Below, one piece after another: positions 5,627 through 11,056 of a DNA stretch of 15,507 nt. The DNA comes from a virus (taxonomy: Duplodnaviria > Heunggongvirae > Uroviricota > Caudoviricetes): the IMG/VR virus record IMGVR_UViG_2778261457_000008, positions 1 through 15,507 of that record. One strand, written 5' to 3'. Position 1 is the first letter of the stretch; each line of letters starts with the position of its first letter. The notes beneath the pieces were generated by a model. It was not told the origin of the DNA and ran no database searches. It was given only the letters and a program-made list of their open reading frames with translations. A program made the position numbers and the translations under genes.

Positions 5627-6334
5627 TTATGCCGCCTGTTTTAGTTCGTTAACTCTGATGTTCATTACCTGAACGCATTTAGCCTGCGCCTCCTCGTTGC
5701 CAGCCATTAATTGCCAGTCACGCTGATAACGCTCGATGAGTTTTTTCTTGTCAGTTTCTGTTGACGCATAATCGCTGAAGTCTTTCAGGATTTGTTCGCA
5801 GTCAACCGATGGAGATTTCTGGTTGGTATTTTCTGGTGATGGTTTGTTATCTGATGCTGGGATTGCCCATCCCGGCAGCGATGGAGGGAGCCAGTAAAAT
5901 CCTGTTCCATCCTTCAGTTTTGCCCTGTGCCACCCCTGCTTTTTATCGAGAGATGTTTGTGCGAAACCTTCCTCAAGGTTATACAGATACCGACCGATTC
6001 CCCACTGAACGGCAGCACGCTTCATTGCACCGGAACGACCACCTTTTACGGCTTCTACCTGCGTGTTTTCAGCGGCATCCCATTTGGTTACCCATTCGGA
6101 ATCAATCTTGATTGATATGCCGCATTCAACTCCGCCGTTGTTGGGAATATCGCGGTATTCATTGCGCCATCCTGCTTTGCCGCAAACATCGTCCAGGCGT
6201 TTCATGATTGCCCGGTTCGTGACATAAGCCAGCACCATAGCCCACACCTTGCCATCGCGTGTTTTACCGCTTTGCTGTATTCGCCATTCGATATCTTCAG
6301 GGCTGAATGGCTCATCGAATTTATTCAAATCCAT
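5627..6334 (-). CDS. Rad52/Sak-like single-strand annealing protein (recombinase)
   Basis: 235 aa; pattern …GGRSGAMKRAAVQWGIGRYLY… resembles Rad52-fold annealing proteins; sits in the bet/erf slot beside ssb; GAGGTG 4 nt upstream of ATG. Confidence 0.55.
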   Translation of the reverse strand: MDLNKFDEPFSPEDIEWRIQQSGKTRDGKVWAMVLAYVTNRAIMKRLDDVCGKAGWRNEYRDIPNNGGVECGISIKIDSEWVTKWDAAENTQVEAVKGGRSGAMKRAAVQWGIGRYLYNLEEGFAQTSLDKKQGWHRAKLKDGTGFYWLPPSLPGWAIPASDNKPSPENTNQKSPSVDCEQILKDFSDYASTETDKKKLIERYQRDWQLMAGNEEAQAKCVQVMNIRVNELKQAA

Positions 6335-6342
6335 AATTCACC

Positions 6343-6531
6343 TCAGAATGGTAATTCGGATGGGGAGGAAAGAAATTCGCGCTCATTCATGCGCTCTCTT
6401 TGTGCTTGCCATAAACAAAGTTGTTTCTTTGATTTATCTCCCGCTTTACGCCAGTAACGAGCCTCAGCAATGTGATATTCTCTTTTTAATCGACTTAACT
6501 CTGGAGTTTTCGCCAGCTCTACCGGAATCAT
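6343..6531 (-). CDS. Hypothetical small basic protein (62 aa)
   Basis: ATG at 6531 with GGAGG 5 nt upstream; ATGA overlap with the kil stop. Confidence 0.45.
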   Translation of the reverse strand: MIPVELAKTPELSRLKREYHIAEARYWRKAGDKSKKQLCLWQAQRERMNEREFLSSPSELPF

Positions 6532-6641
6532 TTAGACCTCCATTTTCTGTAGGCTTCGACGGCCTCACGAAACATCTTTTCATCGCCAATAAAAGTGGCG
6601 ATAGTGAATTTAGTCTGAATAGCCATAAGTGTTTTATCCAT
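6528..6641 (-). CDS. kil: Kil-like host-killing / cell-division inhibitor (37 aa)
   Basis: MDKTLMAIQTKFTIATFIGDEKMFREAVEAYRKWRSK matches my recollection of lambda Kil; its ATG overlaps the cIII stop (ATGGATAA). Confidence 0.5.
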   Translation of the reverse strand: MDKTLMAIQTKFTIATFIGDEKMFREAVEAYRKWRSK

Positions 6642-6780
6642 TTTTTGGAACTCCTGGCTGATTAAGTACGTCGATGAGTCGTTTCCATCCGTCACGTAAT
6701 TTACGGGTGATTCGTTCAAGTAAAGATTCATTTAGTTGGAAGGCACCCATGCGAGCGCCTCCCGCGATTGCGTAAATCAT
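6634..6780 (-). CDS. cIII: CIII (FtsH/HflB inhibitor stabilising CII)
   Basis: 48-aa product MIYAIAGGARMGAFQLNESLLERITRKLRDGWKRLIDVLNQPGVPKNG; central helix matches recalled lambda CIII; AAGGAA 6 nt upstream; not in the ORF track, which instead fuses frames into 6528..6731. Confidence 0.6.
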   Translation of the reverse strand: MIYAIAGGARMGAFQLNESLLERITRKLRDGWKRLIDVLNQPGVPKNG

Positions 6781-6804
6781 GGGTGGTTCCTTATGTTGGT
6801 TTTA

Positions 6805-7773
6805 TTAGTAGGTTATTTTTGTTGCGAATACTTCGCCTTTTACGATGGCTGTTATGATATTTTTAGCAACATCTTCTGATGCGCCAACCTTGATAAGGTC
6901 AGCAAGTATTTTGTTATTTACTTCTTTTCGGTGAGCTTTATCCTTTGCTCTACACTCTTCTTCTTCCTTGATTCTTTTTTCTTCTGCTATTCTGGCTTGC
7001 TCTTTTGCTTCAGCCTCGCGCCGGATTCGTTCAGCCTCCTCCTGTGCTTTTCGGCGTTCTGCTTCAATTGCCGCATGCTTTTCTCTTTCAGCTCGTTCTG
7101 CTGCCTCTTTTGCTTCGCGCTGTGCTCGTTGCTCGGCTTCAATGCGTTCACGCTCTGCACGTTCCGCTGCGGCCTTAGCTTCTGCTTCTCGCCTTGCTGC
7201 TGCTTCAATTTCGGCTTTTGCCTTTGCTTCGGCTTCAGCTCTGGCTTTCTCTTCAGCTTCTCTTTTTAAGCGTTCTTCATGCTCTCGCTTTTCCTGCTCC
7301 GCTTTGAGTCTTGCCTCTTCTCTTTGGCGGTCAAATTCGCGATCCATCAAAATCGCTATTTCATGGTCAGACTCAATTTGCTTTGCGAGAGCTTCAGCTG
7401 CTGCCCTAGCTTCTTCTTCGGCTTTAATCCGCGCCTGTTCTTCCTCATAATCAGTAAGAGGCTGGCGTGCCTTGGCTTTCAGCTCATCAAGGCGATCACG
7501 CACTGTCTTGCGGTTGGCATCAATTAGCTTTGGAATTTCCTTCAGTTCAGCAACAAGGTCTTTGCCAAGACCATCGAGATATGTTTTCGTCTGCGCAACT
7601 TTATACGCCAGAGAAGCGATCTCCTTTCTGCCCTTTGCCGTTGTGATATCAGGCACAAAGGACATAACTTCACGTTCAACCTTTTGAAGGATTTCTTCAA
7701 TCTGGCCGGCAGACTGAAATACAGTCATTGCATTTGCTTTTTCAATAACAACTAAATCTGTTACTTCACTCAT
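6805..7773 (-). CDS. Hypothetical phage protein with long Glu/Ala/Arg/Lys-rich coiled-coil (322 aa)
   Basis: ATG at 7773 with GGAGG 4 nt upstream; the track's start at 7827 lies inside the upstream terminator hairpin; about 150 residues of EAKAEAE/RREAE repeats. Confidence 0.6.
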   Translation of the reverse strand: MSEVTDLVVIEKANAMTVFQSAGQIEEILQKVEREVMSFVPDITTAKGRKEIASLAYKVAQTKTYLDGLGKDLVAELKEIPKLIDANRKTVRDRLDELKAKARQPLTDYEEEQARIKAEEEARAAAEALAKQIESDHEIAILMDREFDRQREEARLKAEQEKREHEERLKREAEEKARAEAEAKAKAEIEAAARREAEAKAAAERAERERIEAEQRAQREAKEAAERAEREKHAAIEAERRKAQEEAERIRREAEAKEQARIAEEKRIKEEEECRAKDKAHRKEVNNKILADLIKVGASEDVAKNIITAIVKGEVFATKITY

Positions 7774-7785
7774 ATATCCTCCGTC

Positions 7786-7812
7786 AAAAAAATTGCCCTC
7801 ACACTGGAGGGC
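7786..7812 (-). terminator. tL1-like intrinsic terminator on minus strand (stem GCCCTC/GAGGGC, loop CAGTGT, then AATTTTTTT)
   Basis: Read from sequence; lies just upstream of the coiled-coil gene's SD. Confidence 0.5.
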
Positions 7813-7962
7813 AAAGAAGATTTCCAATAATCAGAACAAGTCGGCTCCTGTTTAGTTACGAGCGACATTGCTCAGTGTATTCACTCGTTGGAATGAATAT
7901 ACAGTGCAGTGTTTATTAGTATGCCTGTCTTTTAACCACATCAGGCTCGGTGGTTCTCGTGT

Positions 7963-8010
7963 ACCCCTACAGCGAGAAATCGGATAAACTCTATTCACCC
8001 CTACAGAGAG
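7963..8010. repeat. Two 14-bp direct repeats ACCCCTACAG(C/A)GAG, 34 bp apart, upstream of sieB
   Basis: 7963-7976 and 7997-8010, 13/14 identical; the second ends 16 bp before the sieB ATG. Confidence 0.4.
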
Positions 8011-8026
8011 CAAAAGAGAAACGCCG

Positions 8027-8608
8027 ATGAACAACTCATGGTGGCAGGAACTAATGCATTTTTTCCTGCAAGGAATGACACTTAAACAGTTGATTCATAT
8101 GCTAATCATCCTAATCATATTGATTATTGTTATGCCTGTAAGCGTAAAAGAATGGATAAACCTGCATAATCCAGAAATCCTTCCTCATTACTGGATGTAT
8201 TACATCCTGTTGTTTTGCGTTAGCTATGTGCTTAACGGCGTTGTTAATTCCGCTTATCACGCTGTGACTGAAAGAATTGAGATATTCGCTGCTCAGAAGC
8301 GCAAATCTAAAGAAGAGAAATACGTGCAAGATTTGTTTGATTCGTTAACTCTTGGAGAAAGAGCGTATTTGGCATTCGCTGTAGCCGCTAATAACCAGCT
8401 AAAGACAGAAAAGGGAAGCCCTGAAGCAATCTCATTGCTCGAAAAAGGGCTTCTTATTCGGGTACCTTCTGCTACTGGATATCCTGAAATCGACCGTTTT
8501 GTTATCCCGGAACGCTATAGAAATGAGTGCTACATTAGGTTTGCTGGGAAGAAAGACAGTCTTATGGATGAACTTATCGCTCAGGATAAGCATGGCAAAA
8601 ACAAGTAA
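8027..8608 (+). CDS. sieB: Superinfection exclusion protein B-like membrane protein
   Basis: 193 aa; N-terminal hydrophobic helices then a soluble domain; opposite strand from its neighbours next to N, as for sieB in lambdoid and Rac prophages; family call is from memory. Confidence 0.55.
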   Translation: MNNSWWQELMHFFLQGMTLKQLIHMLIILIILIIVMPVSVKEWINLHNPEILPHYWMYYILLFCVSYVLNGVVNSAYHAVTERIEIFAAQKRKSKEEKYVQDLFDSLTLGERAYLAFAVAANNQLKTEKGSPEAISLLEKGLLIRVPSATGYPEIDRFVIPERYRNECYIRFAGKKDSLMDELIAQDKHGKNK

Positions 8609-8624
8609 TTAGCAAATTAATTTA

Positions 8625-8897
8625 TCATCTCGCCGTCAGTTGTTTTGATTTCCGGTAGCCTGCCGCGTAAATGGCTACGTTTGGCAGGCAAATACTTCCA
8701 CTGCATTCATCTGCCTTCTTGCAGCGAAGGCTTCCGAGTGATGCTGCTTTGTCTGCTCTGACGCAACCAGAGAGCTTTAGCGCAATTTTTCGCGCCAGTC
8801 GCTGTTCTTGCATTGCCTGCTCACGTTGAGCCTGTCTGCGTGCTCTGCGGCGATTTCTGGCGTTATCGTCAGCCAGATATGTAATGACTACTGCCAT
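8625..8897 (-). CDS. N: Antitermination protein N (P22 gp24-like)
   Basis: 90 aa; N-terminal arginine-rich motif NARNRRRARRQAQRE; C-terminus …YAAGYRKSKQLTAR recalled from P22 gene 24; GGAGG 5 nt upstream; nutL and pL lie upstream. Confidence 0.7.
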   Translation of the reverse strand: MAVVITYLADDNARNRRRARRQAQREQAMQEQRLARKIALKLSGCVRADKAASLGSLRCKKADECSGSICLPNVAIYAAGYRKSKQLTAR

Positions 8898-9651: not shown

Positions 9652-10368
9652 TCAAACCAGCCTTAGTTTTGTCTCAATTGCAACGCCTATAATCTTGCAG
9701 TTTCCATTGATTGGCACGAGAGGCCATGCAGGATTAAGTCCCTTGAGGTATTTATTTCCGCCGTCGATTATCAGCTTCTTGAATGTTGCTTCGTTAGAGT
9801 CAGAAAGTTTTGCTATGACCAAGCTGCCGTTGATCGCCTCCCTTCCGGTATCGAAAAGAACGAATGTTCCCTCTGGAATGCTTAACCCAACCGGTGCCGT
9901 CATTGAATCACCTTCCACTTTAAGCCAAAACGCATTACCTTGAATATGCGCGTCAGACTCAAGCCAAACATCTATGTCTTTAATGGTGTATGGTTCGCAT
10001 GCTTCACACCACGAGCCAGCCTGGATACTGCTTAACACCGGATACCTCTTTCCTGCTCTGTATTCCCCTGCATACCTTACGTTGGCATCGCTCTTAAGGC
10101 TTTCTGCCTGTTCTGCAACCTTGGCAGCAATTGACTGGCTAAAATCAGCAATTGAGACTTGCAACAATCGTGCAAAACCAGATGCAACCTCAACGTTTAG
10201 CGCGTTTCTGCCATTAAGATAATGCCCTACCGCTCCTTGGGTGATACCAAGTTCATCAGCGATTGAGTATTGGGTTATTCCCAATTCTTTCTTTTTTGAC
10301 TCATACAAAGCCTTAAGACGCTTAGCGTCTTCGAGCTGTTCTGTCGTCAGTGATTTTTTATTTTCCAT
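9652..10368 (-). CDS. cI: CI-type prophage repressor (HTH + S24 LexA-like autocleavage domain)
   Basis: 238 aa; N-terminus LTTEQLEDAKRLKALYESKKKELGITQ and C-terminal FWLKVEGDSMTAP…FKKL closely parallel lambda CI; divergent from cro across operators. Confidence 0.9.
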   Translation of the reverse strand: MENKKSLTTEQLEDAKRLKALYESKKKELGITQYSIADELGITQGAVGHYLNGRNALNVEVASGFARLLQVSIADFSQSIAAKVAEQAESLKSDANVRYAGEYRAGKRYPVLSSIQAGSWCEACEPYTIKDIDVWLESDAHIQGNAFWLKVEGDSMTAPVGLSIPEGTFVLFDTGREAINGSLVIAKLSDSNEATFKKLIIDGGNKYLKGLNPAWPLVPINGNCKIIGVAIETKLRLV

Positions 10369-10777: not shown

Positions 10778-11056
10778 ATGCAACTTACAAGTACTCGCAA
10801 GAAAGCGAATGCAATTACAAGCAACATCCTGAATCGAATTGCTGTACGTGGTCAGCGAAAGGTTGCCGACGCGTTAGGGATTAATGAATCGCAAATTTCG
10901 CGATGGAAAGACAGCTTCATCCCAAAAATGGGAATGCTTCTGGCTGTTCTTGAATGGGGTGTTGAAGACGAGGAGTTGGCGGAACTGGCTAAGAAAGTAG
11001 CAAGAATGCTGACAAAAGAAAAAGCCCCGAAGAACGGCGAATTCTTCGAGGCCTGA
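10778..11056 (+). CDS. cII: CII transcriptional activator
   Basis: 92 aa; …[39 protein letters not shown] parallels lambda CII. Confidence 0.8.
11014..11052 (-). terminator. oop-like antisense intrinsic terminator overlapping the cII 3' end
   Basis: Minus strand: 11-bp stem with one mismatch (GCCTCGAAGAA / TTCTTCGGGGC), 7-nt loop, then TTTTTCTTTT. Confidence 0.5.

Follow-up and report, generated by a model that had tools for sequence, protein, structure and literature searches.

Among the relatives of the locus considered here are the cIII and kil genes of phage lambda. Lambda CIII competitively inhibits the FtsH protease and thereby stabilizes CII; its residues 14-37, an amphipathic helix, form a 24-residue region that is both essential and sufficient, and an R32A mutant has been described (PMC1838920). 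Lambda Kil causes a ZipA-dependent disruption of FtsZ rings and filamentation, and a point mutation in the kil start codon abolishes filamentation (PMC3961180). The characteristic features of Kil are a helix-turn-helix core, a G19-D20 turn and a C-terminal RSK/RSSK motif, and a 32-residue Kil' from HK629 (residues 6-37) inhibits division and disperses Z rings, with a requirement for ZipA (PMC11762379).

The two-gene cIII/kil model is already known, and its biology is ordinary. The HK620 record (AF335538, 2001) has cIII and a 114-nt kil with an 8-nt overlap, followed by hkaM, and carries a note that CIII is shorter than similar proteins, which it attributes to an internal stop codon. The same arrangement is annotated in CurroJimenez_Bas106 (99.7% identical) and in ST64T, and in 100% identical Escherichia coli prophages PGAP names the two genes "protease FtsH-inhibitory lysogeny factor CIII" (147 nt) and "host cell division inhibitory peptide Kil" (114 nt). 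By megablast, 1802 of 5426 complete E. coli genomes match the region, and 48 of these cover at least 80% of the query.

The stretch of DNA analysed here, hereafter the window, comprises 15,507 nucleotides and corresponds to the early region of an E. coli phage or prophage that is mosaic, lambdoid and P22-like. With a probability of about 95%, the segment under study represents cIII-kil of a pL-type leftward early operon, in which two separate proteins are made from their own SD-preceded ATGs. The order on the minus strand is a CI-like repressor (9652..10368), an N-like antiterminator (8625..8897), a tL2A-like terminator (7814..7793), a 322-aa gene (7773..6805), then cIII, kil, an hkaM-like gene, a Rad52-like annealing protein, SSB, an endonuclease and Abc2. 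On the plus strand, a sieB-type gene (8027..8608) lies between the N-like gene and the terminator. The cIII gene thus has the location of its family, 3' of the N-like gene within the leftward early operon. The expected client of CIII is also present, since a CII-like gene is found at 10778..11056 on the plus strand.

A promoter/terminator scan of 6200..8200 yielded only one useful site, the tL2A-like hairpin, a strong structure of the intrinsic-terminator kind with TTGCCCTCCAGTGTGAGGGCAA followed by a T7 tract on the minus strand, which matches the annotated tL2A of HK620. No promoter-like site was found near cIII or kil in this interval, where counts equaled the shuffle expectation, and tL2C and tL2D, annotated inside kil and hkaM of HK620, were not recovered. 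A scan of the whole window at Rfam gathering thresholds gave no match. The 322-aa gene (969 nt; PHROG 1376) encodes a coiled-coil protein of the Sf6 gene 33 type and ends 24 nt before the cIII ATG. The ORF list gives it as 340 aa from TTG 7827 (minus strand), running through the tL2A-like hairpin; public records start it at ATG 7773. Across records this protein is labelled "TolA" or "cell envelope biogenesis protein", labels that probably reflect low-complexity similarity.

The cIII coding sequence (6780..6634, minus strand; 147 nt) runs from ATG 6780 to a TAA stop at 6636..6634 and encodes 48 residues, MIYAIAGGARMGAFQLNESLLERITRKLRDGWKRLIDVLNQPGVPKNG. The kil coding sequence (6641..6528, minus strand; 114 nt) runs from ATG 6641 to a TGA stop at 6530..6528 and encodes 37 residues, MDKTLMAIQTKFTIATFIGDEKMFREAVEAYRKWRSK. 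A direct reading of the minus strand confirmed the coordinates given in a preliminary description of this DNA for these two ORFs and for a 67-aa ORF, as well as the features that it had claimed for them. The good Shine-Dalgarno (SD) sequence of the 48-aa ORF is AAGGA (6792..6788, minus strand), with a 7-nt spacer to ATG 6780, and aligns with TAAGGAG of lambda. The stop of this ORF does overlap the ATG of the 37-aa ORF: the two genes share 8 nt, ATGGATAA (6641..6634, minus strand), so that the kil start codon lies within the last cIII codons and stop. The kil SD, AGGAG (6655..6651, minus strand; 9-nt spacer), is embedded in the cIII codons for P-G-V, and in the alignment it is conserved in lambda, HK620, ST-29 and S.Kent. 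The 8-nt junction also occurs in HK620, ST-29 and S.Kent, and in the annotation of ST64T. Further downstream, the 37-aa ORF overlaps the next gene by ATGA (6531..6528, minus strand), which joins the kil stop to the start of a 62-aa homologue of HK620 hkaM (6531..6343, minus strand; 189 nt; PHROG 1723, E=1.6e-33). This gene, annotated in public records, has GGAGG at 6541..6537 (minus strand), 5 nt upstream of its ATG.

The assignment of the 48-aa ORF to CIII holds at several levels. It matches Pfam Lambda_CIII (PF02061) over all profile positions (1-42/42) with E=1.9e-24 and 85.9 bits, against a gathering cut-off of 25.7 bits, and PHROG 550 with E=6e-29. By BLASTP it is identical to lambda CIII (lambda proteins from NC_001416) at 37 of 48 positions (77%). 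The helix core that the preliminary description had recognized is identical to lambda residues 14-37 at 21 of 24 positions (LNESLLERITRKLRDGWKRLIDVL here vs PSESLLERITRKLRDGWKRLIDIL in lambda), and the equivalent of lambda R32 is kept. On the strength of the lambda biochemistry, the 48-aa protein is expected to inhibit FtsH and to stabilize CII.

The Kil assignment of the 37-aa ORF is equally borne out. Residues 2-32 match the full Pfam Lambda_Kil profile (PF06301; positions 1-31/31) with E=8.4e-22 and 76.8 bits, the gathering cut-off being 27.6 bits, and the ORF matches PHROG 3924 with E=1.7e-26. It is identical to lambda Kil at 31 of 34 positions (BLASTP) and to HK620 Kil and HK629 Kil at 36 of 37, HK629 differing only by V28I; G19, D20 and the terminal RSK are all present in the alignment. 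Its position directly 3' of cIII, with an overlap, is common to HK620, ST64T and lambda. Activity toward ZipA and FtsZ would be expected from lambda and HK629. Since HK629 Kil' differs from residues 6-37 of the present Kil by V28I, its assay used a near-identical peptide, and the toxicity test that had been proposed for the 37-aa peptide has in essence already been done. Searched with CIII, Kil, the 67-aa ORF and the 62-aa and 340-aa proteins, the NCBIfam HMMs returned nothing except a SecE match below threshold; this null result is uninformative, because PGAP nonetheless names both cIII and kil.

Among the closest known systems, CurroJimenez_Bas106 and the PGAP-annotated E. coli prophages (e.g., strain T28R) share 99.7-100% nucleotide identity with this segment; their annotated boundaries of cIII (147 nt), kil (114 nt) and the 189-nt gene are identical, and nothing material differs. 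HK620 and HK629 have the same gene order, the same 8-nt cIII/kil and ATGA kil/hkaM overlaps, and the same CIII C-terminal end (…IDVLNQPGVPKNG, stop). However, the CIII N-terminus is of the longer Sf6/mEp234 type here (MIYAIAGGARMGAFQLNES) and of the lambda type in HK620 and HK629 (MQYAIAGWPVAGCPSES), a 322-aa gene lies here between the tL2A-like terminator and cIII, and the downstream annealing protein is Rad52-like here but Sak4-like there. ST64T and ST-29, which are Salmonella P22-like phages, have, as here, cIII, a 37-aa lambda-type Kil (in those phages ending …EWRLK), the 8-nt overlap and an hkaM-like gene, at about 74% nucleotide identity. Lambda has the same families, pL operon order, overlapping frames and SD positions, but its CIII is 54 aa and its Kil 47 aa with a 32-nt overlap (48 aa, 37 aa and 8 nt here), and its kil is followed by gam rather than by an hkaM-like gene. 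In P22 an unrelated 62-aa kil takes the place of the lambda-type kil.

The 62-aa hkaM-like protein carries the PHROGs label "recombinase" (phrog_1723) and has no Pfam or NCBIfam match. In phages of E. coli and Salmonella alike, its gene accompanies the 37-aa Kil. The annealing protein encoded downstream of it varies, being Rad52-like here and Sak4-like in both HK620 and HK629, and the hkaM-like gene occupies the place held by arf in P22.

Upstream and through 6679, the 5' part of cIII and the gene preceding it share 99% identity with Sf6, mEp234 and mEp043. From 6729 downstream, the 3' part of cIII together with kil and hkaM shares 97-98% identity with HK620, HK629 and Stx phages. Judged from these identities, cIII is a recombinant of two types, with its crossover placed within the shared core of about 50 nt at 6729..6679 (minus strand), which encodes ESLLERITRKLRDGWKR. 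As a separate observation, a Kil tail …KWRSK overlaps the hkaM start in the module of the window (6540-6528, minus strand), HK620 and ST-29, whereas the lambda tail …KWILILKLRSSKSIH overlaps gam (positions 1188-1230 of the lambda segment compared). Because the C-terminal tail depends on the downstream module, a mosaic boundary is placed inside kil after W34; both tails keep the RS(S)K motif noted in PMC11762379.

The preliminary description had also held that the ORF track fuses cIII and kil. Its view that these are two real overlapping genes stands, but the 67-aa ORF (6731..6528, minus strand) does not contain the CIII peptide. It consists of the kil frame and 30 codons upstream of it, and is thus an over-extended kil, the extension (6731..6642, minus strand) being the kil frame read across cIII out of frame, MNLYLNESPVNYVTDGNDSSTYLISQEFQK. 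A true CIII-Kil fusion protein was rejected, as cIII and kil are in different frames. The absence of cIII from the track follows from its 48 aa, which are fewer than the 60-aa cut-off.

For the start sites in this phage, 6780 and 6641 are favored by the SD sequences and by comparison with related phages. A kil start at the internal Met6 (ATG 6626) instead of 6641 would yield a 32-aa peptide, and the several potential initiator methionines in HK629 Kil, together with the activity of the 32-residue Kil', would be compatible with it (PMC11762379). We nevertheless regard this as quite unlikely, since AGGAG is positioned for 6641 and no SD precedes 6626, MDK(T/S)LM persists where nucleotide identity is down to 74%, the Lambda_Kil profile begins at residue 2 of the 37-aa form, and lambda Kil is lost upon mutation of the homologous first ATG (PMC3961180).

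The start at 6641 must also be weighed against ATG 6731. This codon lies immediately 3' of a TAA stop, and a reading of the sequence upstream of it revealed no purine-rich SD, as the preliminary description had stated. Within the 67-aa ORF, the Lambda_Kil match begins only at residue 32, and the extension has no Pfam match. In the Salmonella phages ST-29 and S.Kent 1-2-1 (about 74% nucleotide identity), in which the 37-aa Kil is MDKSLMAIQSKF…EWRLK, the kil frame has a stop 7 codons 5' of the conserved ATG and a second stop further up, so that a long Kil is impossible there. Between the window and ST-29, substitutions over 6780..6642 number 9/7/25 at cIII codon positions 1/2/3, and the 25 at cIII position 3 are second-position changes when read in the kil frame; over the kil-only stretch, the corresponding numbers at kil codon positions 1/2/3 are 8/6/13. 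Substitutions in the extension thus follow the cIII frame, with the kil frame there free of constraint, and on this comparative footing the 67-aa ORF is best regarded as an artefact of longest-ORF calling.

A 37-aa Kil might in principle be accompanied by a minor extended isoform from 6731 that overlaps cIII (in the lambda type, from an ATG 42 codons upstream), given that the kil frame is open for 30 codons upstream here and for 49 in lambda, HK620 and 933W, with an in-frame ATG in each. However, the open frame is not independent evidence because it is carried over with a cIII sequence that is highly conserved, and, with the frame closed in the Salmonella homologues, no SD and no constraint on that frame, such an isoform is very improbable. 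That the 67-aa ORF from 6731 is the real, long Kil and the 48-aa cIII ORF not a gene would agree with the long Kil annotated in Huey, HK629 and 933W and with the match of the 67-aa ORF to PHROG 2461 (E=8e-42), but this has next to no chance of being right and is effectively refuted by the comparative data: no SD precedes 6731, the extension lacks a Pfam match and the Kil profile starts at residue 32, the ST-29 and S.Kent stops close the frame and substitutions track that of cIII, the 48-aa ORF matches Lambda_CIII (E=1.9e-24), and PHROG 2461 can be explained by the clustering of over-long calls. The preliminary description had named as fatal to its gene assignments a lack of similarity to CIII or Kil combined with initiation at 6731; the family matches, the Salmonella stops and the substitution pattern point in the opposite direction.

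Annotations of related phages vary in this region. Kil is called as 67 aa (204 nt) in Huey (1670-1873 of the segment compared) and as 79 aa in HK629 (463-702 of the segment compared), with no cIII annotated in either, and as 89 aa in 933W (363-632 of the segment compared), where cIII is also annotated; each of these calls begins at an in-frame ATG further upstream and so reads cIII out of frame. The 89-position "Kil" profile PHROG 2461 appears to have been built from over-long Kil calls of this kind. In Huey, the 3' end of CIII (1735-1767 of the segment compared) reads …NQPRVPTNG, compared with …NQPGVPKNG in the window; through the underlying change the kil SD becomes AAGAG instead of AGGAG, a natural variant that could alter Kil output. 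In the Erwinia phage Midgardsormr38, the place of kil downstream of cIII is taken by a 38-aa ORF without an annotated function, MKSRYFSKAQELCREAVMYSNADKWAAAMNILRRAFQP (335-451 of the segment compared), which overlaps cIII by 4 nt; its resemblance to Kil is limited to a faint "REAV", and it could be a divergent or analogous small host-targeting peptide.

The 5' part of cIII may contain an additional regulatory element. An 11-bp mRNA hairpin is predicted at 6763..6738 (minus strand), over cIII codons 6-15, in both the MFE and centroid folds. The single-sequence fold of the cIII leader has a z-score of about -1.8, which is not significant alone. Across five long-N cIII genes (those of the window, ST-29, ST104, P22 and the Erwinia phage Midgardsormr38), the pairing holds in 87% of cells, the slid controls reaching at most 58%, and compensatory double changes are seen at three pairs; with only five sequences, the hairpin is a lead only. 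When the 5' arm was forced open, the 3' arm, which contains CCUUCC, was predicted to pair with the SD/AUG region (-17.0 vs -28.2 kcal/mol). The hairpin resembles the alternative mRNA structures that control lambda cIII (Altuvia et al., 1989, as cited in PMC6524683) and may be an analogue of them. That it is a class-specific version, in long-N cIII genes, of the lambda translational control by mRNA structure is a tentative and rather doubtful proposal. Under such control, the anti-SD-like CCUUCC would be kept away from the SD and AUG, which could account for the conservation of N-terminal CIII residues that have no known protein function, and the hairpin, together with the start/stop overlaps, would set the ratio of CIII, Kil and HkaM output.

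Overall, if the locus operates as in lambda, its transcript would come from pL with N antitermination, CIII would competitively inhibit FtsH and thereby spare CII, and Kil, as in lambda and HK629, would transiently block FtsZ-ring assembly via ZipA, leading to filamentation. The start-stop overlaps of cIII/kil and kil/hkaM would permit translational coupling along the operon.

The value of the present finding lies in annotation quality, as the finding itself holds no new biology. Longest-ORF calling or a length cut-off drops cIII, a regulator of the lysis-lysogeny decision, and over-extends kil; several phage genomes have been deposited with this error, and a PHROG family has grown out of it. 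Calling cIII and kil correctly matters for the prediction of lysogeny control and of host-toxicity genes in prophages, including Stx phages.
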